DNA of 64,000 bases from sequence record NC_027356.1; one strand, written 5' to 3'. The stretch is from Escherichia phage DT57C. Shown one piece after another: positions 1 through 58,061 of this stretch. Under the pieces are notes generated by a model. It was given only the letters and a program-made list of their open reading frames with translations, ran no database searches and was not told the origin of the DNA. Position 1 is the stretch's first letter. Every line of letters begins with the position of its first letter. The position numbers were made by a program, and so were the translations under genes.

Positions 1-70
1 GCTCACCGCCGGAGGCGAAAATACTTAGTCTGCTAACCGCCACCCCCCGTTACTATTACTCTGCTAACTA

Positions 71-4593: not shown

Positions 4594-5220
4594 TATCGTC
4601 GTCTCCTTATAAGGTTAATAAGTTTGCCGCCGATGGGCTTTAAAATGCACCTGATTTTTAAAGAGCGCGGCGGTAAACTTTCCGCCGTGTAGTTCGTCAT
4701 TGCCGCCCTACGAGATAAATAATAGGGAATACCCAAAAAAGGTGCAACCTTAATTTTGTAAAGAAATGTAAAGAAAGCAAATACCCGCACCGCGTCCGGC
4801 GATCGCCCAAGTTTAAAGGAAACAGGCGCGCGGATACCATAAAACCGAGCTGATTGGCAAGTAATTTTTTCATTTTTATTTGCCTTGCCCTACTTGACAA
4901 AACTTAAAAAGCTCGTGGTGACGATAAACGGGCTATCCCTTTATGATGGGATACCTGAAAAATTTACCGCGTTGTAGGACGTTTTAGGCCGCTTATCTTC
5001 GATTTAACAAATATTTAACAAAAGCAAAATTGAAAAATAGTTTGAGAAGGTATTGACTTTTTAAAATCAAGACTAAACGAGTTATTTTAAAAAATTAATT
5101 AATTGACTTTTATTTGTTGTTGTGTAGTAGAAAGATAGCAGACTAATAATTGCTAGAATGATAATCATGCTGGTGATTGTAACAGACTGAACTATTAGCA
5201 GACTACTGATCCCGGAAAAT

Positions 5221-5260
5221 CTCATTAGCCAACTAACTATCTCATTAGCCAACTAACTAT
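5221..5260. repeat. Direct repeat 2 x 20 bp (ctcattagccaactaactat)
   Basis: Identical tandem copies read directly. Confidence 0.8.
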
Positions 5261-5265
5261 TTCAT

Positions 5266-5450
5266 AAGTTATAATAACTATAAAAATAATCACCGTTAAA
5301 ATAATCACTATAAAAATAATCACCATTAAAATAATAACTATAGAAATAATCACCATTATAATAATCACCATTAAAATAATCACTATAAAAATAATCACCA
5401 TTAAAATAATCACTATAAAAATAATCACCATTATTATAATCACTATAAGA
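5266..5450. repeat. AT-rich tandem repeat block (units ~12/24 bp, aataatcac[ct]a[t]taaaa)
   Basis: ~8 reiterations visible; explains spurious I/V-rich ORF 5237-5443. Confidence 0.8.
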
Positions 5451-5486
5451 AACTATCGGCTTAAGTGAGAACCACTATCATTTAAG

Positions 5487-5568
5487 TTATCCACAACGTT
5501 ATCCACAGCACAAAATGATTTGACACGATAGGCGGCGATATAAAGATTTATCCACAGACTTATCCACA
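5487..5568 (+). promoter_or_regulatory. Cluster of four DnaA boxes (TTATCCACA) in direct orientation
   Basis: Exact 9-mers at 5487, 5499, 5548, 5560; followed by LexA-like half-site ctgtatatttatccag (5579-5594). Confidence 0.6.
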
Positions 5569-5872
5569 GGTTATCCTACTGTATATTTATCCAGGGTAAA
5601 AAGATAGTGTTTACAACTGCAATCAATTTTGAGCGGCCTAAAACGCTTTCTAACGAGCTGATCGCTGTAGGGTAATATTAAAGTAAAGCCTTTACCCGTC
5701 GGCCTAGAGGCTTCGCCGTGTTTTGCTCTTTACTGCACCGCTGCGCGGTTAGCATAAAACTAGGTGTTAGGCAAGAAAAATAAAAAGTAAAGTAAACGTT
5801 GCCCCTAGAAAGAAAATAATTTTACCGGTAACATCGAAAGCGGGTAATAATTAACCTAATGTAAAGTTTTGT

Positions 5873-5902
5873 AAGGCCCGCCATAATCAGCGGCCTTTTT
5901 TG
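5873..5902 (+). terminator. Rho-independent terminator-like hairpin with T6 tract
   Basis: aaggcccgcc...gcggcc stem followed by tttttt. Confidence 0.45.
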
Positions 5903-5965
5903 TTATACTGCCCTTACACCGTTTAAGGACGGTTAAAAATTTCCCGAAAAATTTGGAGGCTTAAA

Positions 5966-6145
5966 ATGGTTATTTTTCGATCTATTCTGGCGGGTATCTT
6001 GGGCGCTATTTTAACTCTATTTGCTACCGCTTACGGTATTCAAGATTCTTATTGCGGTTTAGTAAATACTAAACCTATGGTTATTATTGGCGCGGGTATC
6101 GCTGTTTTTTCTTATTTGCTGGGCTGCATGAATAAAGGAGAATAA
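5966..6145 (+). CDS. Small membrane protein (~59 aa), first gene of small plus-strand operon
   Basis: GGAGG RBS then ATG; hydrophobic translation MVIFRSILAGILGAILTLFATAYG...; not in ORF track (size). Confidence 0.35.
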   Translation: MVIFRSILAGILGAILTLFATAYGIQDSYCGLVNTKPMVIIGAGIAVFSYLLGCMNKGE

Positions 6146-6147
6146 AA

Positions 6148-6360
6148 ATGATCCGCAACGTTTCTCTTGCTCGTTCCAAAGGTTTTAAGCTGGTGGATGT
6201 AAACACGTTCGAGCGTCCTGGTTGTAAAATCGAATATATAGCGCGGAATAAAAACGCTTTCCGCGTTACAGAAAAGAGATTCGATAAACGCGGCAACGTG
6301 ATAGCTGAAACGGTTAAATATTTTGCCACCTTTTACGCGGCCTTTCGTGGGGTATTATGA
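6148..6360 (+). CDS. Hypothetical protein
   Basis: 70-aa ORF; AGGAG RBS; translationally coupled to neighbours. Confidence 0.45.
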   Translation: MIRNVSLARSKGFKLVDVNTFERPGCKIEYIARNKNAFRVTEKRFDKRGNVIAETVKYFATFYAAFRGVL

Positions 6361-6483
6361 AGAGCGTTGTTATTGTTATCCTTGCAATGGTTGGCGGTTT
6401 TACCACCACCTTGTTTAGAAATGATCCTCTTTTGCTAGGGATCTTTATGCTTTTATCTGGTTATCTGATCGGGAGGTTATAAA
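6358..6483 (+). CDS. Small membrane protein (~41 aa)
   Basis: ATG overlaps upstream stop (ATGA); hydrophobic; by-eye call. Confidence 0.25.
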
Positions 6484-6828
6484 ATGGTGATTTATGAAGG
6501 TGATCGCCTTGTTGCTGATTGCCGTCCGGCATTGTTAGCAAACTACTTAAACCAGCTTTCGCCAGTATATAAAGGCGTTATAAATATTTATGAAGGCGGG
6601 GCGCATTATAAGATTAATGCGGTCGTTGCCCGTGAACTAGCGTTTCAATTTTTAACCTTTTCATCTTGCAATATTCAGGTCATGGGTGAGGCGTTAATTG
6701 CAGAAAATGAAGATGATTTTATTAATATCTTTCGCAAGATATGCACCGAGCGCCTGATAATGAAAGGGGCATATATTCAATCCACTGCGGATAGTATTGA
6801 AACGGCTTTTCGAAAGGTGGCACAATGA
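6484..6828 (+). CDS. Hypothetical protein
   Basis: 114-aa ORF; GGAGG RBS 6 nt upstream. Confidence 0.5.
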   Translation: MVIYEGDRLVADCRPALLANYLNQLSPVYKGVINIYEGGAHYKINAVVARELAFQFLTFSSCNIQVMGEALIAENEDDFINIFRKICTERLIMKGAYIQSTADSIETAFRKVAQ

Positions 6829-6952
6829 AGCTATATATTTTCGCGGGTAATGTTGAGGCTGCAAATGATTCCGCTGGTGGCGATAGCGTTCGCCATTATT
6901 GGCAAAATTATATTTACTAGGCGTAATGATCACGGGGCACAACTATCAGGGA

Positions 6953-6979
6953 GTGCCCCTGATTCTCAAATGAGAATGA
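6953..6979 (+). terminator. Hairpin (ggggcac...gtgcccc) at end of small operon
   Basis: 7-bp GC stem read directly; weak U-tract. Confidence 0.3.
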
Positions 6980-7182
6980 TTCTCATTTGACCGCGCCCGC
7001 GATGGTTAGCACACTAATGATTAGGGTGTTACGTGTCGCCTTGTGTGATCGTTAGCGGGCTAACTAATTTTCAAGCCTCCTCCAGATTTGCCCTTGTTTT
7101 AGTATCCCCATCAAAATAAAACGCGTTAGAAAGCGATTCAGGGCGTTTTAGGCCTATATTAGAATTATCCACTGCGTAGGAA

Positions 7183-7202
7183 TACTGTATATTTATACAG
7201 TA
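7183..7202. promoter_or_regulatory. LexA (SOS) box-like palindrome TACTGTATATTTATACAGTA
   Basis: CTGT-N8-ACAG with AT-rich spacer, matches E. coli LexA consensus at nearly all positions. Confidence 0.5.
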
Positions 7203-7211
7203 GAATAACCT

Positions 7212-7292
7212 GGGGATAAGTCGGTGGATAACGCTTCAAAATGGCTAGAATTTTGTCAAGGCAAATCGTGCTGTTGATAAGTCTGTGGATAA
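7212..7292 (-). promoter_or_regulatory. DnaA-box cluster in inverse orientation (TGTGGATAA and variants)
   Basis: Perfect box at 7284-7292, 1-mismatch box at 7224-7232, partial ttatc-core boxes nearby. Confidence 0.5.
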
Positions 7293-7309
7293 CTTAAATA
7301 ACAGTGTTT

Positions 7310-7590
7310 CTCACTTCCGTTTTTAAATGCGAATCATTATCATTTGCATTCCACTTCTTAAATGAGAATCATTTCACTTCTTGAATAGTTCTCATTCCCT
7401 TTCTTAAATGAGAATCATTTCACTTCTTGAATAGTTCTCATTTCACTTCTTGAATAGTTCTCATTCCACTTCTTAAATGAGAATCATTCCACTTCTTAAA
7501 TGAGAATCATTCCACCTCTTAAATGAGAATGATTATCATTCGCATTCCACTTCTTAAATGCGAATGATAATCATTCTCATTCGCATTCCG
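7310..7590. repeat. Tandem array of ~22-bp repeats (cacttctt[a/g]aat[g]agaatcatt), ~10 units, flanked by palindromes
   Basis: Repeats read directly; iteron-like organisation next to DnaA boxes. Confidence 0.8.
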
Positions 7591-7594
7591 GCGA

Positions 7595-7612
7595 GCAGGG
7601 CAATTGCCCTGC
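7595..7612. repeat. Perfect 18-bp palindrome GCAGGGCAATTGCCCTGC
   Basis: Self-complementary sequence read directly. Confidence 0.8.
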
Positions 7613-7617
7613 GCTTA

Positions 7618-8361
7618 TGTGCAAATCCGACAATTGCTCCAAGGGTTACGCGAGGGCATGTATGTGCAAATCCGACCCATTTTTTGGTAGTGTGCAAATC
7701 CGACCCCAAAAATTTATAAATTCGTGAGAGTGACAAATCTGTCTCCCAAAAACTCCAGCAATCACGAACTGCGTTCGAATCCTGTGGGGTATGTGCAAAT
7801 CCGACACGGTTTTTCTAGGATTAAGATGTGCGAATCCGATGAAATTTTTGTGACTTCGATGAGAGGGTGTGTGATTGTATAGGTTTGAGGAGAAGATGAG
7901 AGAGCGAGAAAAATTTTGGGGCTAGAAGTGTATGGGCGCAGGATTGGTGCGGAGCACCTGATTTGCGGGGGTTTTGGGGGATAGTGGAGATAATTTGGGG
8001 AAATTTGAGATAGGTGCAGAAAAAGTAAAATTTTATTAGCTAAAGGGGGCAATATAGCTTGACAATTGAAAATTCTTGTGGCTCTAAAAACTCAGGCAAT
8101 CATGGGCCTTCGGCCCGAAATAATGCTGCTATTTTCAGGAGATTATATGTTCCTAAAAACTTAGGCGTTTGTGCAAATCCGACCATAAATTTCTAGAAAC
8201 ACAATGTGCAAATCCGACAGTAATTCCTGGAAATGTGTTTTCAAAAAATGTCTCCTAGAAATAACCGCCCTCCCTATAACCGCCCTCCCTATAACCGGCC
8301 TAGGTATGTAACGTTGGAGGGAAACTGCCCTAGAATATGTGCAAATCCGATTAATATTTTT
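7618..8361 (+). repeat. Dispersed array of 8 copies of 13-mer TGTGCAAATCCGA(C/T), most followed by N4-6 and a T-run; interleaved CCTAGAA motifs
   Basis: Copies at ~7618, 7663, 7692, 7792, 7827 (variant), 8169, 8206, 8347; a ninth inside CDS at ~10394. Confidence 0.75.
8261..8300. repeat. Direct repeat ataaccgccctccct x2 (+ partial third)
   Basis: Read directly. Confidence 0.7.
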
Positions 8362-43678: not shown

Positions 43679-43744
43679 TCCTATAGTGTACTTTGCTTCT
43701 AACAGAGGATCAACAAAAGATCTTGTTTATCAACTTACAAATAT

Positions 43745-43773
43745 ATTATACCAGTATATACAGTAAAAAGCAA
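43745..43773 (-). promoter_or_regulatory. Sigma70 promoter for phoH operon (TTGCTT-17-TATAAT)
   Basis: -10 43745-43750, -35 43768-43773. Confidence 0.55.
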
Positions 43774-43818
43774 CTACAATTTTAAATAAGCCTATGATAT
43801 TGCATTTAAATAAAAAAT

Positions 43819-43847
43819 TTGCTTGCTTATAAAGGTAAAAGTATGAT
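43819..43847 (+). promoter_or_regulatory. Sigma70 promoter (TTGCTT-17-TATGAT), rightward
   Basis: Read directly in divergent intergenic region. Confidence 0.45.
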
Positions 43848-43910
43848 ACTAGATAATCATTTATTTATACGCGAAATATTACAGTATTAGATGGCGAAAG
43901 AAAAATTTAA

Positions 43911-43939
43911 TTGACATAGTGGGTAATATTTAGTATAAT
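43911..43939 (+). promoter_or_regulatory. Consensus sigma70 promoter (TTGACA-17-TATAAT), rightward, upstream of nrdD
   Basis: Perfect -35 and -10 hexamers with 17-bp spacer. Confidence 0.65.
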
Positions 43940-44073
43940 AAGTGTAAAAATTCTGAGGAGAAAACTAATCCACAGTAACTACTGTAAAGAGTAGAACTGT
44001 CAGTACAGAAGTTTTAACGGGGGTATAGAGGTCCTCGGTACTGTAGCTACAAAATTTATAGAGGAAATAATTA

Positions 44074-45900: not shown

Positions 45901-45909
45901 GCTAATCAG

Positions 45910-45940
45910 CCAGGTTGCTAGTCGACCTGGCTTTTATTTT
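45910..45940 (+). terminator. Rho-independent terminator after nrdD
   Basis: ccaggt...acctgg hairpin followed by cttttatttt. Confidence 0.5.
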
Positions 45941-45942
45941 AT

Positions 45943-45971
45943 TTGCTTTCAGCCAAAAATTTATATATAAT
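45943..45971 (+). promoter_or_regulatory. Sigma70-type promoter (TTGCTT-17-TATAAT)
   Basis: Followed by aaatttgagaggag RBS region and ATG at 46000. Confidence 0.6.
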
Positions 45972-45999
45972 AGATTTGTAAATTTGAGAGGAGAAAGCT

Positions 46000-46212
46000 A
46001 TGAGGATTCATAAGGTAGATAAAGATCGTATCTATTTTGTTATGGACTCCGGAGCATATGGATCTATTCTAAGAGAAGATGTTACTAAATTTTGCTTAGT
46101 AAATACTTGGATGGATAAGGAGAAGATTGACCCTAGATCAGGCATATGCTTATCGGAACCAGCTCTTTTAATTGCAAATGCAGAAATTGAATTGTTTGAG
46201 GACATAGAATGA
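46000..46212 (+). CDS. Hypothetical protein
   Basis: 70-aa ORF with GAGGAG RBS. Confidence 0.5.
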   Translation: MRIHKVDKDRIYFVMDSGAYGSILREDVTKFCLVNTWMDKEKIDPRSGICLSEPALLIANAEIELFEDIE

Positions 46213-46767: not shown

Positions 46768-47196
46768 ATGTTTAATAATGTATTCTCTAAAGAAGCTAAC
46801 CCAATATTGGTTAATTTTTGGCGTACTCTTCCAGACAACCTGTACAATGAGGCTATTAATGCTCTGAAAATATGGTGTGAGAATAATGAAATCTCCTTTG
46901 CTTTTAAGGGTGAGATTGAAGAAGCTCCCTGTATTGGTTTAATTGTGCAGGTAGAGGATGATCTGGAAGAGATTGTCGGATGGAAAGAGTTGGATGAAAT
47001 GGGATTGGTTTTTGCATTAAACTATAAGCTGTTTATGCCTAATAAACACCGTATTGTTGTTAATTATAAAACCAGTGAATCTCCGGGCTTTCAAGTTAAT
47101 GAACATTACGGTTGGTCTTACTCACCGGAAGAAGTAAATGATGGTATCCAAAGACTTCGTCGTTTTGGTTATCAAATTCCGGGTTTAACCGCCTAA
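46768..47196 (+). CDS. Hypothetical protein, paralog of 47206-47598
   Basis: 142-aa ORF; shared blocks (C[IV]G..., W.EL..MGL[IV].ALN..LF.P) with neighbour. Confidence 0.55.
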   Translation: MFNNVFSKEANPILVNFWRTLPDNLYNEAINALKIWCENNEISFAFKGEIEEAPCIGLIVQVEDDLEEIVGWKELDEMGLVFALNYKLFMPNKHRIVVNYKTSESPGFQVNEHYGWSYSPEEVNDGIQRLRRFGYQIPGLTA

Positions 47197-47205
47197 GGGG
47201 GCACA

Positions 47206-47598
47206 ATGGAACAAGTATATTGGCGTCAGATTGATCCTAGTTTGGTGAAGCGTGCGGAGAAGCTGCTACAACGTTGGTTGGGGGTAAGACAAGCCTCCTT
47301 CACTTTTCCGGAGCAGCAAATAGACGATCCCTGTGTTGGTGTTTTCCTATCAGGCTACGCTAGGGAAGTGGAATTGGATTGGAATGAATTGTCTGCTATG
47401 GGTTTAATTGTTGCACTAAATTTCTCTTTGTTCCATCCACGTGGCTTGGCCATAAGTCGTGTGCCTGATGACGGTTGTTCGCCCCATCTTTTACAGGTGG
47501 AAGATGATATTTGGGAGTACCCTCCAGATATTCTCAAAGAAGCTAAAGAACAATTAAATCGTGTTGGGATTTATGTTCTAGGCCTGAATGATGAATGA
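47206..47598 (+). CDS. Hypothetical protein, paralog of 46768-47196
   Basis: 130-aa ORF. Confidence 0.55.
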   Translation: MEQVYWRQIDPSLVKRAEKLLQRWLGVRQASFTFPEQQIDDPCVGVFLSGYAREVELDWNELSAMGLIVALNFSLFHPRGLAISRVPDDGCSPHLLQVEDDIWEYPPDILKEAKEQLNRVGIYVLGLNDE

Positions 47599-47619
47599 TT
47601 TTTATTAGCTGAACTCTAA

Positions 47620-47648
47620 TTACCGAGTCATTTTGGCTCGGTTTTCTC
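47620..47648 (+). terminator. Terminator-like hairpin (ccgag...ctcgg) with T-run
   Basis: Read directly after 47598 stop. Confidence 0.4.
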
Positions 47649-47689
47649 TATGTTCAAAGACACTGGTAGCAGCCCCTGGAAAAATTTAC

Positions 47690-47718
47690 TTGCTTGATGC
47701 TCAAAATCTTGATATAAT
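47690..47718 (+). promoter_or_regulatory. Sigma70-type promoter (TTGCTT-17-TATAAT) followed by ~600 nt without ORF
   Basis: Exact hexamers with 17-bp spacer; no start codon/ORF until ~48315. Confidence 0.55.
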
Positions 47719-48314
47719 ATTTATATTGAATTGAGAGACATTAGTAAAAATTGATTTTGCTAATTTTTCTTAGTGAAGCTGACAAGGGATTTACGGCGAG
47801 AGGAATCGATGACCCGTAAATAGCTGCATAAGGTACGTTGCTAGAGCTTTACGAAAAAGTTTTTTCTTGTTTACAATCCGCGATACGGAACAGTTAGGCT
47901 GCCCCATTAAGGGTTGTTTTAACTGTTACGTGTTAGTTTTTAAACAAATAGTTAATAGAATACTTAGCGATCTACACCCCGTAGGAACCCTGGTAAGGCC
48001 TCGAAGCAACCTAGTGTGAGGTGGTTGTGAAGTGAGACGGGAAGAGTGAAAAACTCTGAGAAGTGATGACGTAAGGTATACTGCATCTAGTATGAGCTAG
48101 TACATGAAGCATTAGGTGAGCAAATCTGGCTTAGCGGCCATCCTCAAGGATTTGTGCGGTATAGTGAAGCGGCAGTGTAGCGTGAAAGTGGAAGTTGCCA
48201 CCCCACTTCAGTATTTGCGATTAATTTGTTGAGAAATTGACAGTAACAGTTGTTCTATTCTTTCTGAATAGTCCTAAAGAAAACTTATTTCATTTCCAAC
48301 ACAGGAGTATTGTT

Positions 48315-51104
48315 GTGTTTTCAATCCTACAAGGTCATGCAGGATTTCATCGCGATTTAGCCACAGGCAATTGGCGAGAAGTTAAAGCAGAAGATTATCT
48401 TTTTGCTAAAAGATTTTCCTCAAAGCATCCTGAAGGTAAACCAGCTTCAATGCCCTTCAAGTTTGATGTAATTGATGAAGTTGATCCTCAAACCCTAGTA
48501 GAAATGCTCCCTCTTATGAGACGTTTAACGTCTGATCCTCATATCGTTGCGGTACGAGGTCGATGTCTTGCACCTAAAAATAATGTGCGGCGTAAGAAGG
48601 GCAACTTTAATGTATCTAATCCTAGTAGTATTATTGCTATGGACGTGGATGGTATTGTAGATACAGGTGGTTGTAACAAGTTTGATCTTGTTGGCATGGC
48701 TCGTCATATTATTAGGATGTTAAATAGTATTAGTGAGGATATGTTTCCTCTTGATGCAGGGTTTATTGCTCATGCATCGTCTTCGGCTGGGCTAAAACCA
48801 GGTATCCGAATGCACTTAATACTAGAATCTAATGTTAAAGTAACTCAGGGTCAAATCAAGTTCTTATTTACATCTATCAACGAAAGTAGTAGACAAAAGT
48901 ATGGCTTTGATATTGCCGACTTAGCTTATTACTCTTCCGTACAGCTCCATTACTTTGCAGATCCTTTATTTACCGATGGTATAGTTGATCCGTTTAAAGC
49001 GGAGGGTGCTTCACGTCTGGTATTTGTTAAAGGCTCAAAAGTAAATTTACCTAATAATCTAGTTGACTATGAAACAACTAGAGGGGAGTTTAAAGAGGAA
49101 TTCTATTCTTTACTCGACCAAATTAAAGGTAAAAAAGCTGCTTCTGATAAAGTAGAGGAAACTATCAGTGAGCTAGAAGAGGCTGATGATGGGGTATACT
49201 TACGTATTATTCCAAAGCTATATCACCGAGCGTTAGAGGATGGGGTAGATTTTGGTTGGCTAGAAAAAGAAATCCGCCCAGCTTTATCAGAATATATTGC
49301 AACTAAAGATAATAGCCGTAATATTCAAGACTACTTTAACAACGGTCGAAAACAGGCTCTGAAAGCATTTGTTAATAATTCTAAACGTGATATACCCGAT
49401 GTTTTAAAAGGTATTCCGCTTAAAAAGCTAGAAACTAATTCACTAGAGACCGACAACTTCTTGAAATTAAATACTGTACCACCAGAAGGCTATATGACTT
49501 TTGTAAAAGCAAGTCTAGGTACAGGTAAAACCACGGCTGTTGTGCGTTGGTTAGATTCAGGAGTTATTAAAGGTAATTTCTTAGCAATTACCAACACTAG
49601 AGCACTGGTATCTTCAAATGCTAAGAAATTTAGTGCAGGACAATACGATAAGTCTGTAGATATGCTTAATTTTAAGCGTGGTGCTATTGACCGTATGTCC
49701 ACAACCATTCACTCTTTGCATAAGTTTAAGAGTTTTATTGGTCAAATTGATGCAATCTTTATAGACGAATGTGATGCAGTAATGAATGACCTATTATTCG
49801 CCCCCGTTGTTAAACAACGTCGTGAGTGTATTCAGGTTCTTCGTGATATTCTTGCAACTGCAAAAATCATTATACTATCCGATGGTGACATTAGTTCTGA
49901 GACGATTGAAGCATATGGTTCTTTGATTGAGTTCGATAAACCAGTTGCATTCTATAATCACCACCGTAAAATGCTGTCAAAAGCTCATGCTTATGAGTTC
50001 CCTGATGAGTCCAGTATTTGGGTTGCACTTCAGACCTCTCTAGAGATGGGTGAGAAATCTATTCTAGTATCTGATTGTGGCCCAGATGAGCTGAATGAGA
50101 AGGGTATGGCACTACGTCGTAATACTGGTGCATTAGTTAAAGAAATCCATTCAAACTCCACTTCAGATGTGGATATTCGACGTATTCTGGATTATACAAC
50201 TAATGAGCTAATTGATCAACAAATTGATTGCTTATTATGTAGTCCATCCGTAACGAGTGGAGTTGACTTTAACTATTTTGATAACGTATTTGTTATTACT
50301 AGAACCAGTAATCAGGCGCCAAACATGCGTTTCCAAGCAATCAGGCGCGACCGTGGTGCTCAGAATATCTATTATTTTATTGATAAATCCACTAGTGGAT
50401 TCTCTGCAGGTTCTGAACAATATAATATTGATGAAGGTTGGCTGGAGTTAGCGCAGCAATTATATGCACGTCGCAGGGAGCTGGAATCTAGAAACTATAC
50501 TAGTACTTTACGTTATTACTTGCTTGATCAAGGTGCAACTATTGATATTTTCAGTGAAAGCTGGGGAACTATTGAAGGTGCTGGTAAAGAATACACAGAA
50601 GAGCGAATCAAAGCTATTCTGCACTCAACTCCTGATTATTGTGCTCCACGTCATGCGGATGCGTATGAGGCTAAACTACTTATTGTTCGCTATTATCATC
50701 TTGAGTCTATTAAAGATGTAACAGTTGAGCATGTTGAACAATATATCAAAGATAAGCCGAATGATCGAGCTGCATTCTTCCATAAGATGCACGAGATGTT
50801 CTGGGAAGATATTAAGAAGTGTTCAAATGTGACCATTAAACCATTCATAGAAGCTCTGAAAGGTAAGAAGAAAGATTTCTTCCTTAAAACGGGTCAGAGT
50901 GCTAACCCAAAATATGCTAGAATGTATCTTGGTATGATGGGTATTGGTAAAGATATGAACACGGAGAATATCGTAGACTGGTACAGAACCTATTGTAAAA
51001 TCGAGTGTATGCCAATTCCTTTCAAATTTATGACAGAGGAAGAGAAGGCTATGGCAGAAGAAGCAATGTCAGAGCTAGGTGCTAGAAATGACAGTGAAGA
51101 ATAA
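48315..51104 (+). CDS. Large P-loop ATPase / helicase-like protein (possible replication initiator)
   Basis: Track ORF 48237-51104; start proposed at GTG 48315 (AGGAG RBS 7 nt upstream); Walker A GTGKTT, Walker B-like IFIDECD. Confidence 0.5.
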   Translation: MFSILQGHAGFHRDLATGNWREVKAEDYLFAKRFSSKHPEGKPASMPFKFDVIDEVDPQTLVEMLPLMRRLTSDPHIVAVRGRCLAPKNNVRRKKGNFNVSNPSSIIAMDVDGIVDTGGCNKFDLVGMARHIIRMLNSISEDMFPLDAGFIAHASSSAGLKPGIRMHLILESNVKVTQGQIKFLFTSINESSRQKYGFDIADLAYYSSVQLHYFADPLFTDGIVDPFKAEGASRLVFVKGSKVNLPNNLVDYETTRGEFKEEFYSLLDQIKGKKAASDKVEETISELEEADDGVYLRIIPKLYHRALEDGVDFGWLEKEIRPALSEYIATKDNSRNIQDYFNNGRKQALKAFVNNSKRDIPDVLKGIPLKKLETNSLETDNFLKLNTVPPEGYMTFVKASLGTGKTTAVVRWLDSGVIKGNFLAITNTRALVSSNAKKFSAGQYDKSVDMLNFKRGAIDRMSTTIHSLHKFKSFIGQIDAIFIDECDAVMNDLLFAPVVKQRRECIQVLRDILATAKIIILSDGDISSETIEAYGSLIEFDKPVAFYNHHRKMLSKAHAYEFPDESSIWVALQTSLEMGEKSILVSDCGPDELNEKGMALRRNTGALVKEIHSNSTSDVDIRRILDYTTNELIDQQIDCLLCSPSVTSGVDFNYFDNVFVITRTSNQAPNMRFQAIRRDRGAQNIYYFIDKSTSGFSAGSEQYNIDEGWLELAQQLYARRRELESRNYTSTLRYYLLDQGATIDIFSESWGTIEGAGKEYTEERIKAILHSTPDYCAPRHADAYEAKLLIVRYYHLESIKDVTVEHVEQYIKDKPNDRAAFFHKMHEMFWEDIKKCSNVTIKPFIEALKGKKKDFFLKTGQSANPKYARMYLGMMGIGKDMNTENIVDWYRTYCKIECMPIPFKFMTEEEKAMAEEAMSELGARNDSEE

Positions 51105-53514: not shown

Positions 53515-53528
53515 TTCTTGGCTTTTTC
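53500..53528 (+). terminator. Rho-independent terminator (gccaagaa...ttcttggc ttttt)
   Basis: 8-bp stem plus T-run, overlaps 3' end of CDS. Confidence 0.55.
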
Positions 53529-53541
53529 TTTATAAATGTAT

Positions 53542-53570
53542 TTGCTTTCAACTCAGTTTTGATATATAAT
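53542..53570 (+). promoter_or_regulatory. Sigma70-type promoter (TTGCTT-17-TATAAT)
   Basis: Read directly. Confidence 0.6.
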
Positions 53571-53599
53571 ATTTATATAAATTAATGAGAGGATCAATC

Positions 53600-53800
53600 A
53601 TGGCAATGACAGTAACACTTCCCAAGATTCAAGCAAAACTTAATCTGCTTTCCACAGCACGCATTAATTATCAAGATAACATAGGCACAGTAAATCAAAA
53701 GGCGTACAAAGATGCGTTTCTGAAAGAATCTGCTGATTTGATGGATATGGTTACACAATATAATAAAGAACTCAAGATGGAAATCGCCGATGATGAATAA
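53600..53800 (+). CDS. Small hypothetical protein (start at ATG 53600)
   Basis: Track ORF 53585-53800; GAGAGGA RBS favours internal ATG. Confidence 0.45.
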   Translation: MAMTVTLPKIQAKLNLLSTARINYQDNIGTVNQKAYKDAFLKESADLMDMVTQYNKELKMEIADDE

Positions 53801-55746: not shown

Positions 55747-56506
55747 ACTGAACTGGAACGTAGAAGGTGTAACCGAGTCTCTGAAAGCAAAAGCCACTGC
55801 TCTGGGTGTTGCTGTAATCTCTCAAGAACAAGTAGCTGCTATCGCTGCTGAACTGGCTGCTGAAACTGGCAAAGACGTTACCGCTCGCTCTGTTGGCTCT
55901 AAGCTGCGTAAAGAAGGTTTCGAAGTACAGAAAGCTAACGAAGTACAGAAATCCCCGTGGACTCCTGAGCAGGAAGCTGAACTGGTTGATTTCCTGAACT
56001 CTCATGCTGGTCAGTATACTTATGCTGAAATCGCTGCTGCTGTAGCTGGTGGTCAGTTCGGTGCTAAACAGGTACAGGGTAAGATCCTGAGTCTGGAAAT
56101 GACCGCCTCTGTTAAACCAACTGAAAAAGCTGCTGCTGTTCGTTCCTTCACTCCGGATGAAGAAACTGATTTTGTTAATCAGGTTGTTGCTGGTGCTACT
56201 ATTGAAGCTATCGCTGCCCACTTCGGTCGCAATATTAAGCAGATCCGTGGTAAAGCTCTGAGTCTGCTTCGTGAAGGTCGTATCGCCGCTATGCCGGTAC
56301 AGGAAACTTCAAGTGCTAAAACTCGTGAAGATCTGCTAGAAGGTCTGGATCTGGCTAACATGACTGTTGCTGAGATCGCTGAGAAAACTGGTAAGTCTGA
56401 GCGCGGTGTTAAATCTATGCTGTCTCGTCGTGGTCTGGTTGCTAAGGACTATGATGGTGCCGCTAAGCGTGCTAAACTGGATGCAAAAGCTGCGGCTGCT
56501 GAATAA
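55739..56506 (+). CDS. Abundant early protein with host-optimal codons (possibly D5-like DNA-binding protein)
   Basis: 255-aa ORF; Ala-rich; codon usage ctg/gct/ggt/cgt; strong terminator downstream. Confidence 0.4.
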   Translation: MSKLNWNVEGVTESLKAKATALGVAVISQEQVAAIAAELAAETGKDVTARSVGSKLRKEGFEVQKANEVQKSPWTPEQEAELVDFLNSHAGQYTYAEIAAAVAGGQFGAKQVQGKILSLEMTASVKPTEKAAAVRSFTPDEETDFVNQVVAGATIEAIAAHFGRNIKQIRGKALSLLREGRIAAMPVQETSSAKTREDLLEGLDLANMTVAEIAEKTGKSERGVKSMLSRRGLVAKDYDGAAKRAKLDAKAAAAE

Positions 56507-56523
56507 TCTGGTAAATTAAACCT

Positions 56524-56557
56524 AAGGGGAGGGGGCTATGCTCCTTCCCCTTTTTGC
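56524..56557 (+). terminator. Strong rho-independent terminator (aaggggagg...cctccttcccc ttttt)
   Basis: GC-rich stem plus T5. Confidence 0.6.
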
Positions 56558-56588
56558 ATTTAGAAGGCACGAAAGCGTGCAAAGGAGA

Positions 56589-58061
56589 ATGACCTTGTTT
56601 AACGTGCAAGCTGTAGTGTTGAAGATGCTTCTAGCTTCCGAACAGAAGCAAATAGCATTGGAAACATTCTCAAAACTGCATAAAGATCATTTTAATGACG
56701 CTTTCTCCTCAATTTACCAAGCCGTCCAGAATTATTATAAAAAGTATAACACAATGCCGTCCATTGACGCACTGATGCTTGAGGCTAATAGGAACGCCCG
56801 CCTTTCTCAAGCTCTAGTCGTTTTAGCTAACACTCAAATTCCAGAAGTTAGCATGGAACAGGCACTTGAAGTCCTAGAGGCCGAGTATACACAGGATTTA
56901 TTCCTGAAGCTTCTAGAAACAGACGTGCTTCAAGATTTAACAATGCTGGATCAGGGAGAAATTCTTAACCGAGTTGCCTCCCTTCACTTAAAATTAGAAG
57001 AGAAAGTAACGAATACTGGAAAAGTATTCAACGCAGATAACATGCGTATTTTCCAGAGAGAAGAAGATACCAAACTGAACTTAATCGCTCTTGGTATTTG
57101 TAATGAGTTCGACGCTCAAATTGGTTTAGCTCGCACAGAAACGTTACTGCTTGGTGGTTGGCGTGGTACTGGTAAATCCATTATCTGTTCAAACATACAG
57201 GTTCAGCAATATTTGAATGGAGATATTGCTCCATACTTCTCAATTGAGATGAAAGAACATGAAGTATTTAGACGTAATCTAGCTATGTTAGCTGGTGTAT
57301 CAGCACTAGCAATGCGTAATAATACTCTAGAAGGTGCAGCTCTGTTGAGATTAGCCAGAACTAGAGCTAGGATGTTTAACGGTGGTGAAGAGCTTTTCGA
57401 TAACTTCGTTAAACAGTATACAATGGCTAAGATGTGTGATTTCTACGATATGGAAAGTAAGCTAATAGAAGGGTATGAGCTACATACTCCTATGATTATT
57501 GTTTATGATCCTGAGCTGTCTATTACAACAGTTGACGTAGAATTAAATAAATTAGTTGCTAGATATGGGGATAAAGTTACAGTAGCTTTACTAGACTATA
57601 TTAACCAAACCCGACTTCCAGACTCTAAAACCATTGATATGTATGACTGGAAAGAACAGATGGTTGTTAGCTCGTCTTTCAAATCTATCTGCCAGAAACA
57701 TAACGTGGCTGGTGTAGCTCCTTACCAGATCGATCAAGATGGTAGAACACGTATGTCGAAGGGGATTCTTGATTCCGCAGACATGGCTGCTAATCTTAAT
57801 GCTGCAAAAGCTGATAATGGTCAAGGTGCTATTATGTTTGACTTCGTTAAGACTCGGTCTTCTGATAGCGTGAAGTTTATGCCTAAAATGAACTGGGAAA
57901 CCCTGCGGATGGATAACACTACCAACCTAGCAATGGAAGATATATCTCAAATGGAAGCTGAGTTCGTTATCCCTATTGAGAAGGATAAGCCGGCTCAATC
58001 TAAACGTGCTAAGAAAGACAAAGCTGAAAATTCAACAGGTGAACAGGCCAGCGATATATGA
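56589..58061 (+). CDS. Replicative helicase-like ATPase (DnaB/RecA-fold)
   Basis: Track ORF 56538-58061 begins inside the terminator; start moved to ATG 56589 (AAGGAG RBS); Walker A GGWRGTGKS. Confidence 0.5.
   Translation: MTLFNVQAVVLKMLLASEQKQIALETFSKLHKDHFNDAFSSIYQAVQNYYKKYNTMPSIDALMLEANRNARLSQALVVLANTQIPEVSMEQALEVLEAEYTQDLFLKLLETDVLQDLTMLDQGEILNRVASLHLKLEEKVTNTGKVFNADNMRIFQREEDTKLNLIALGICNEFDAQIGLARTETLLLGGWRGTGKSIICSNIQVQQYLNGDIAPYFSIEMKEHEVFRRNLAMLAGVSALAMRNNTLEGAALLRLARTRARMFNGGEELFDNFVKQYTMAKMCDFYDMESKLIEGYELHTPMIIVYDPELSITTVDVELNKLVARYGDKVTVALLDYINQTRLPDSKTIDMYDWKEQMVVSSSFKSICQKHNVAGVAPYQIDQDGRTRMSKGILDSADMAANLNAAKADNGQGAIMFDFVKTRSSDSVKFMPKMNWETLRMDNTTNLAMEDISQMEAEFVIPIEKDKPAQSKRAKKDKAENSTGEQASDI

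Follow-up and report, generated by a model that had tools for sequence, protein, structure and literature searches.

A conserved structured RNA ahead of the D2 helicase gene of T5-like phages, a candidate new RNA family

The subject of this analysis is a gap in the genome of Escherichia phage DT57C (sequence record NC_027356.1), of which a stretch of 64,000 nucleotides (nt), hereafter the window, was analysed; the gap extends from a DUF7415-encoding gene (47206-47598) and its terminator to a gene of 929 codons that starts with GTG at position 48315 and specifies the homologue of the T5 helicase D2. This region is a conserved, highly structured sense-strand RNA element, lying downstream of a T5 early promoter and ahead of the D2 ribosome-binding site, and is best filed as a conserved structured non-coding RNA and candidate new family, its general kind being that of long structured leaders or processed non-coding RNAs. 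An initial annotation of the window had proposed a long leader, a small RNA or a replication-origin-associated transcript at this locus. Its view of a non-coding region behind a strong promoter and ahead of an initiator-type helicase gene was supported by the absence of a conserved open reading frame (ORF) and by a covarying sense-strand fold, whereas the association with an origin fared poorly, iterons being absent and the minimum of the guanine-cytosine (GC) skew lying together with an adenine-thymine (AT) trough ~4 kb upstream.

The window is that of a T5-like phage (Tequintavirus), and also contains a tRNA cluster. When a 721-nt query (47600-48320) was compared with phage records 540 were matched, the top match being Salmonella phage SP3 (Tequintavirus) at 97.5% identity. 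From IMG/VR, metagenomes and GenBank phages 42 unique leaders, each running from promoter to start codon, were gathered, and nine lineages were folded singly and independently of each other, all of which yielded one architecture. In window coordinates this architecture, with the signals that flank it, is composed as follows.

47680-47718, plus strand: T5 early-type promoter, with an A/T tract, the -35 hexamer TTGCTT (47690-47695), a 17-nt spacer, the TG of an extended -10 (47710-47711) and the -10 hexamer TATAAT (47713-47718).
47725, plus strand: presumed transcription start, the seventh nucleotide past the -10 hexamer, placed by analogy with the T5 promoter PN25.
47732-47772, plus strand: P1, a 5'-terminal extended hairpin of ~6-7 bp, a 1-nt interruption, 10 bp and a 5-nt loop, the 5' arm of which is the GAGAGA of the promoter-downstream element.
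47765-47861, plus strand: optional branched stem module of 97 nt, flanked by TTTTTCTT direct repeats and holding the hairpin GGGATTTACGG (47786-47796)/CCGTAAAT (47814-47821).
47873-47917, plus strand: P2, a conserved small hairpin with GAUACGGAACAGUUAGGCUGCCCCAUU, helix 1 of which is 98% paired and nearly invariant in sequence.
47920-47953, plus strand: 5' arm of P3, an AU-rich long-range helix found in single-sequence folds.
47954-48218, plus strand: branched core of 265 nt, type-A allele, enclosed by P3 and supported by folds and covariation.
48120-48155, plus strand: stem and loop with the mini-hairpin GCU-UAGC-GGC, the invariant CUUAGCGG at 48130-48137, compensatory changes at 8/8 pairs and 100% pairing.
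48186-48208, plus strand: hairpin AAGUGG...CCACUU with a conserved GUUGCCA loop, 5/6 pairs showing compensatory changes.
48219-48252, plus strand: 3' arm of P3, forming 10+11+11 bp with the 5' arm (~32 bp).
48255-48271, plus strand: 3' hairpin CUAUUC-UUUCU-GAAUAG, which is not followed by a U-run and was not called as a terminator.
48303-48317, plus strand: Shine-Dalgarno sequence AGGAG (48303-48307) and GTG start codon (48315-48317) of D2, in agreement with the coding-sequence start in phage SP3.

The hairpin P1 was observed in 8/8 lineages, with z-scores of -3.5 to -6.4 despite unrelated sequences, and it begins ~3-8 nt past the inferred transcription start. A long AU-rich duplex enclosing 200-265 nt was present in each of the nine lineages folded; in the window this duplex, P3, amounts to 32 bp, a length reached by 0/60 shuffled sequences. 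The stem of the 3' hairpin is CUAUC/GAUAG, CUUUCC/GGAAAG or ACUAU/AUAGU in other lineages, and it is followed by ~30 unpaired A/U-rich nt and then by the Shine-Dalgarno sequence and start codon. The motif UUAGCGG occurs exactly once per leader in 42/42 unique leaders, ~300-350 nt past the inferred start when the insert is set aside, and in all lineages its loop is closed by a stem of lineage-specific sequence. Two alternative or tertiary pairings, GAAGUG:CACUUC and one between the P1 3' arm and AAGAAAA near the ribosome-binding site, were also considered and were dropped, as they are not conserved across lineages.

Support for the fold was obtained from covariation. The leaders were divided into type A and type B because a global MAFFT and RNAalifold alignment collapsed with the most distant leaders, L031 and L066; the covariation set consisted of 12 sequences from five type-A lineages, namely the window type, a Klebsiella type (L029), L063, a Pectobacterium My1 type (L064) and L080. 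For these 12 sequences RNAalifold predicted 65 pairs, with compensatory double changes in 42/65; 92.5% of cells paired, as compared to 34-46% when partners were slid by 1-3 columns, and the covariation score was 0.437, which 0/500 shuffles reached, as compared to ~0.1 for the control. A sub-domain was realigned with Infernal because MAFFT had put the CUUAGCGG anchor out of register, and in this alignment 96.6% of cells were paired and the stem closing the CUUAGCGG loop was compensatory at 8/8 pairs. For type B 153 pairs were predicted, and almost all helix substitutions between its sub-lineages maintain pairing: compensatory pairs numbered 6 and wobble switches 10, as compared to 2 broken cells. 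These figures are to be read with restraint, and in this respect speak against too confident a reading of the fold, as the independent lineages are few, the cells represent sequences rather than events, and the structures were tested on the very alignments from which they had been derived or to which they had been fitted; the independent single-sequence folds offset these caveats.

From five near-identical sequences of the window type a covariance model of 138 nt (48073-48210) was built, which found the element at the correct place in L080 (5e-12), L029 (3e-5), L063 (1e-4) and L064 (6e-3). In type B (E=0.03-0.09), L032 and L066 the covariance models recovered just the CUUAGCGG stem-loop, at the expected positions. 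With the models R1 and R2 the sub-domain was not found in full in type B, L031/L032 or L066, nor was anything credible detected in the gaps of Vibrio and Aeromonas phages; sequence-level homology is therefore demonstrated only within the type-A lineages. Elsewhere in the window, at 56487-56602, R1 gave a weak match (15.9 bits, E=0.03) over a gene end and a terminator-like GC hairpin, which was judged to be due to chance.

The strand that folds could also be assigned. Helix cells contained 130 G.U against 10 A.C combinations, and the minimum free energy was -161.9 kcal/mol for the sense strand and -127.7 kcal/mol for the antisense strand, a difference of 34 kcal/mol; the folded molecule is therefore the strand read from the promoter. 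Covariation as such cannot separate RNA from single-stranded DNA of the same strand, and the hairpins might be entry signals for primase or helicase in an unwound plus strand, like the plasmid ssi sites recognised by RepB', a proposal that accords with the preference of D2 for structured DNA substrates (PMC3632103). It is nevertheless very improbable, as the long-range pairs span ~300 nt and 17% of all pairs are G.U (G.T in DNA), both of which would be costly in DNA; moreover, the element begins few bases past the transcription start, its first hairpin makes use of the promoter-downstream element, and known ssi signals measure ~40-100 nt.

From the inferred start at 47725 to the GTG at 48315 the leader comprises 590 nt, in which ORFs are only short (20-73 aa). 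The initial annotation had stated as much, and had named a protein-coding frame conserved in relatives as a finding that would overturn its view; no such frame was found in the gap among 11 lineages, the longest ORFs varying in frame, position and strand. Its remark that the GC content exceeds that of neighbouring intergenic DNA was also sustained, the leader having 40% GC and the core 42-44%, as compared to 28-34% in other intergenic gaps (43679-44073, 45901-46208 and 53515-53789). The purine-rich repeats to which it drew attention proved to be weak, being two-copy 9-10-mers that form no array and are parts of the folded RNA. As for structure, the initial annotation had noticed a local hairpin, and had missed the large conserved secondary structure with its long-range helix and invariant loop; the gggatttacgg/ccgtaaat hairpin that it described exists, though within the optional 97-nt module that most relatives lack. 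The Rfam scan that it had suggested matched the region to no known family: across the whole window tRNAs alone passed the gathering threshold of Rfam 15, the best hit to the region at a permissive threshold (E=0.2) was far below the gathering threshold, and the loci of 10 relatives gave no match. A search of Rfam and of the literature yielded no description of the element.

These data bear on the simplest alternative, that the gap is a spacer or holds degraded gene remnants with chance structure, or else encodes small proteins. Some genome records do annotate 1-4 short hypothetical proteins in the gap, other GenBank records leaving it blank, and the thermodynamic z-score of the whole leader is modest (-2.1). 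Such an explanation is nonetheless scarcely credible and largely refuted, as the ORFs are conserved in neither frame, position nor strand, covariation is far above that of the controls, and the length, the promoter and the place of the motif have been retained between lineages with D2 proteins of only 56-70% identity.

While the flanks of the element, that is the promoter, P1, P2, outer P3, 3' hairpin and ribosome-binding site, are near-identical throughout Tequintavirus and Epseptimavirus, the core comes as two alleles, alike in architecture but barely alignable in sequence. The type A core is carried by the window and SP3 and resembles the core of the far more distant phages L029, L063, L064 and L080, while the type B core is carried by T5 and most Epseptimavirus. 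The window core (47954-48218) is nearer to that of phages with a D2 only 67-73% identical than to that of T5 (locus L017, 2110-2400). This distribution points to a swapping of modules, with the long-range helix as their boundary. The 97-nt module is absent from most relatives and was found in one copy per record in 49 T5-like phage records; alignments of the locus place it at one identical site, in phages with either core allele, and alone it folds at -21.6 kcal/mol. It is thus an optional extra stem and not a dispersed repeat, and its occurrence suggests spread by recombination, or else loss and gain via the flanking TTTTTCTT repeat.

The promoter at 47690 is of the standard T5 early type. 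The TTGCTT-17-TATAAT promoter described in the initial annotation is present at 47690-47718, with an extended -10 TG in addition, and the TTGAGAG downstream element is, as had been stated, followed by no start codon here. A window-wide search for TTGNNN-16..18-TATAAT returned 39 sites, ~35 of which are of the TTGCTx-17-TATAAT type, and the downstream element (...ATAAATTGA/GAGAGG...), common to many of these promoters, elsewhere leads directly into a ribosome-binding site. A generic sigma-70 scan overlooked the 47690 promoter because TTGCTT agrees with TTGACA at just 3/6 positions. The promoter is retained in all relatives examined, and at the corresponding position the record of T5 itself has an annotated promoter, followed by ~470 nt that carry no annotation. 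The upstream border of the locus is likewise preserved, and is formed by the following feature.

47622-47648, plus strand: intrinsic terminator of the upstream operon, a 9-bp stem followed by a T-run, kept in the alignment and annotated at the equivalent site in the T5 record.

Directly upstream of this terminator two adjacent paralogous DUF7415 genes are located (46768-47196 and 47206-47598), each with two copies of the domain.

Downstream of the leader lies the gene which the initial annotation had taken for a putative initiator or helicase, an assignment that holds.

48315-51104, plus strand: gene of 929 codons with a GTG start for the D2 bipolar superfamily 2 (SF2) helicase, homologue of T5.108, named 'replication origin binding protein' in many records.

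The core of this protein is a UL9-like SF2 helicase (Pfam Herpes_ori_bp at residues 394-533; NCBIfam CyRepA1 at 393-708), and comparison with solved structures matched UL9-type origin-binding proteins (E=4e-5). The T5 D2 bipolar helicase has been characterised biochemically and proposed as a replication initiator; it requires single-stranded tails for unwinding to begin and prefers structured DNA substrates, amber mutants in D2 made no DNA in earlier work cited in the same paper, and the T5 origin lacks a definition at sequence level (PMC3632103). The N-terminal 390 aa of D2 gave no match in Pfam, PHROG functions or the PDB, and the AlphaFold model of this domain (mean pLDDT 37.6) was discarded as too poor for testing primase-like motifs. 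Within residues 1-390 (48315-49484) the positions D110-x-D112, S155, S157, G159 ... I164, R165, H167 and A215-x-P217 are invariant or nearly so from T5 to Vibrio and Aeromonas phages; they resemble primase-polymerase motifs of the archaeo-eukaryotic primase (AEP) type, and the protein is named 'DNA primase' in some records. A comparison of the domain with a collection of 5.8 billion proteins returned two partial homologues only, though hundreds of phage genomes encode the domain, and D2-family phage proteins seem to be largely missing from, or unreachable in, that index.

In all relatives a gap of 530-890 nt precedes D2. Distant Demerecviridae, the D2 of which is 25-34% identical, also keep a gap, of 712 nt in Vibrio phage Brizo, 636 nt in PG07, ~730 nt in D51 and ~1590 nt in Aeromonas phage TS3. 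These Vibrio and Aeromonas gaps fold extensively, and D51 and 70E34-1a, which are 69% identical, show many pair-preserving differences; homology to the leader RNA is unproven because there are two sequences per clade and no model match. Scans of metagenomes and of IMG/VR for Vibrio-type relatives added little or no diversity. Several features of these distant loci and of other records were noted in passing. In Vibrio phage D51 (L070, OZ196642.1) the start annotated for the D2 homologue, at 2636, seems to have been placed 135 nt too far downstream; the match to the protein begins at 2501, as does an AAGGAG-spacer-ATG (MFVILS..., as compared to MFSILQGH in the window). The gap of Vibrio phage PG07 (L071) contains, by eye, a direct duplication of ~56 nt (GACTATCACTTTGTAGCCTCAATCCTCGGATTGTGTGAGTCAGTTAACTTCTGTCG) at ~1936-1991 and 2047-2102. 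The ~1590-nt non-coding gap of Aeromonas phage TS3 (L072, 719-2308) has UUAGCGG-containing loops at 1200, 1444 and 2019 and, again by eye, ~70-100 nt ahead of the D2 start, a two-tier hairpin with a trailing T-run, which the scan tool did not call. Finally, three records of T5-like sequences, OR847565.1, MG065692.1 and OQ031075.1, bear the names 'Listeria phage LM 4-11-1', 'Campylobacter phage C13' and 'Klebsiella phage'; their D2 or leader is 85-98% identical to that of Salmonella and E. coli T5-like phages, and the host labels look doubtful.

With regard to function we tentatively favour, with a confidence that falls somewhat short of an even chance, a processed, cis-acting leader that controls D2 expression. 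The region would be transcribed from ~47725 as the 5' leader of the D2 mRNA, and the ~32-bp AU-rich helix P3 (47920-47953 with 48219-48252) may, by analogy with known stalks, serve as a substrate for host RNase III. Cleavage at P3 would free the ~265-nt core and leave the D2 message with a 5' end just before the 3' hairpin, and would thereby set the stability and translation of this message and tune the amount of D2. The core, with its invariant CUUAGCGG loop, may bind a protein, possibly D2 itself, that modulates the P3 step, which would allow feedback. A near-continuous duplex of at least ~20 bp, such as marks an RNase III stalk, is present in the window, with comparable helices in nine lineages. 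In T5-like phages, scans for terminators and promoters revealed neither a terminator nor a second promoter in the interval from the fold to the D2 start. A classical riboswitch or attenuator design does not fit the leader, because no terminator precedes the start and the ribosome-binding site is unsequestered; similarly, a small RNA gene delimited by its own terminator is not indicated in the window or its T5-like relatives, where no intrinsic terminator precedes D2, a terminator-like site being seen in the Vibrio D51 clade.

Several observations count against a leader of this kind. The Shine-Dalgarno sequence is either unpaired, within an A/U-rich stretch, or part of a weak local hairpin, and no conserved helix sequesters it. 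The P3 helix of T5 is more interrupted than that of the window, amounting to 19 bp by a strict helix-continuity metric, a length reached by 12/60 shuffles and hence not significant. A search of the literature for data on the transcript, processing or expression of the leader found none. In the relative L066 a perfect consensus promoter is situated past the structured region, 37 nt upstream of the D2 ATG, and Vibrio phages D51 and 70E34-1a have a terminator-like hairpin, kept by compensatory changes, ~113 nt before D2. The latter two sites suggest that the RNA can act independently of the D2 message.

Such independence is the essence of another explanation, in which the core, set free by processing or, in some clades, through a terminator of its own, is a free-standing RNA that acts in trans, for example as the ribonucleoprotein partner of D2 or by titrating a host factor as a decoy or sponge; its place upstream of D2 would then reflect the co-inheritance of partners as for HEARO/omega-RNA with IscB or retron non-coding RNA with reverse transcriptase. 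Apart from the L066 promoter and the D51-clade terminator between structured region and D2, this explanation draws on the processing-stalk geometry around the core, on the position of the ribosome-binding site outside the fold, on an invariant loop within a fast-changing scaffold, and on two sharply different core alleles between near-identical flanks, a pattern known from specificity determinants and arms-race elements. We consider it rather unlikely, given that T5-like phages have no terminator or second promoter here, that no RNA-binding domain was recognised in D2, of which the N-terminal 390 aa match no family, and that homology of the Vibrio and Aeromonas gaps is unproven.

The replication-origin reading of the locus was weighed in its own right. 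Within the leader neither iterons nor initiator-binding sites repeated at least three times were found, only the two-copy 9-10-mers, and the leader also lacks an AT-rich unwinding element and a skew switch, its GC content being 40-44% and the skew unchanged across the region. The leader is thus not an iteron- or DnaA-box-type origin. An AT trough (28-29% GC) and the cumulative GC-skew minimum are located at 43.6-44.1 kb, ~4 kb upstream, where the direction of transcription switches, and a composition-marked origin in the window, if there is any, would be at 43679-44073 rather than in the leader. The interval 43679-44073 is itself a 395-nt gap of 28% GC between divergently transcribed gene blocks, in which no direct repeats were found. 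Repeats are abundant towards the left end of the window, where ~12-15 tandem 15-mers (ATAATCACCATTAAA) occur at 5241-5495, 23-nt repeats at 7347-7547 and TGTGCAAATCCGA repeats at 7615-8360, accompanied by repeated and inverted TTATCCACA (DnaA-box-like) motifs at 5487-5569 and 7210-7293. The T5 terminal repeat contains a large untranslated region with the injection stop signal, already known from the literature, to which the arrays at 5200-7600 probably correspond.

An origin of a different design was also considered, in which the transcript is a primer: a persistent hybrid with the template near or after the 3' part of the RNA would be trimmed by phage or host RNase H and prime the leading strand, while the exposed single-stranded DNA would be the loading site for the adjacent, cis-acting D2, in a manner resembling ColE1 RNA II or T4 oriF/ori(uvsY). 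A structured transcript of ~500 nt with its own promoter, as in ColE1, is indeed predicted, with the strong promoter ~500-600 nt upstream of an initiator-type helicase gene; ColE1 RNA II has a comparable size and likewise requires its fold. RNase H is encoded by T5 itself, and throughout the family the element is tightly linked to D2, as is typical of origin-initiator modules. The properties of D2 cited above, namely its need for single-stranded tails and the lack of DNA synthesis in amber mutants, together with a T5 origin not defined at sequence level (PMC3632103), are also in keeping with such a primer. The absence of repeated binding sites and the location of the AT-rich trough and skew minimum at 43.6-44.1 kb argue against it, as does the fact that no antisense control promoter was found: on the minus strand no T5-type promoter is present in 47.6-48.3 kb, and only a weak 9/12 site was seen at 48423-48394. 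Strong self-folding of the RNA, moreover, does not in itself favour R-loops, and on balance a primer function is regarded as rather doubtful. A further proposal, in which the excised core is a dedicated RNA partner of D2, seems quite improbable to us. The core would serve as a primer or form an R-loop, or would be an RNA subunit directing or licensing initiation, and its alleles would be replicon-specificity determinants; if this were true, initiation would depend on RNA in a way not described for tailed phages.

The origin and initiation mechanism of T5, a classic model phage, are undefined, and D2 is the sole candidate initiator. A folded RNA of ~500 nt which precedes D2 family-wide, and the core of which is turned over and swapped, offers a testable handle on D2 control or initiation. 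Large conserved structured RNAs are rare, and a new family in widely applied therapeutic and biocontrol phages (T5-like phages of Salmonella, E. coli and Klebsiella) is worth curating; its curation would end spurious 'hypothetical protein' calls at the leader in many genome records.

Among the known systems with which the leader can be compared, the ColE1 RNA II primer and the T4 R-loop origins oriF/ori(uvsY) share a transcript of ~500-600 nt with a dedicated promoter in a replication module, the RNA fold being essential in ColE1; they differ in that the T5-like leader lacks an antisense unit like RNA I, an unwinding element and a skew signal, and in that its transcript continues into a protein-coding gene and has no mapped RNA-DNA transition. 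The herpesvirus origins oriS and oriL are of interest as D2 is the closest characterised relative of their origin-binding protein UL9; these origins, however, are short palindromic DNA with repeated UL9 boxes around an AT spacer, and no such boxes were found in the T5-like leader. The translational operators of T4 gene 32, gene 43 and the regA targets are, like the present element, cis-acting RNA in the leader of a replication gene and offer a possible route to autoregulation, but are pseudoknots or hairpins of ~20-40 nt that overlap the ribosome-binding site, whereas the T5-like element measures ~500 nt and leaves the ribosome-binding site unpaired. GOLLD, ROOL and HEARO/omega-RNA resemble it in their large, elaborate conserved structure and phage context, HEARO also in its place directly upstream of a partner ORF; the element described here differs from them in having no Rfam match, an SF2 helicase as its neighbour and hosts restricted to Demerecviridae. 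The RNase III leaders and stalks, namely those of E. coli rnc and pnp, lambda N, T7 early mRNA and rRNA, share a long imperfect duplex that is untranslated and situated between a strong promoter and a coding region, and in the rRNA operons the helix likewise surrounds a large structured RNA, which in rRNA is excised. Most RNase III leader sites are local hairpins of ~40-80 nt, whereas the helix of the T5-like leader spans ~300 nt, its cleavage being putative and proposed by analogy, and the domain that it encloses is a conserved RNA of 200-265 nt. Set beside these systems, the leader RNA is unusual in its size, in its family-wide tie to an initiator helicase and in the swapping of its alleles.

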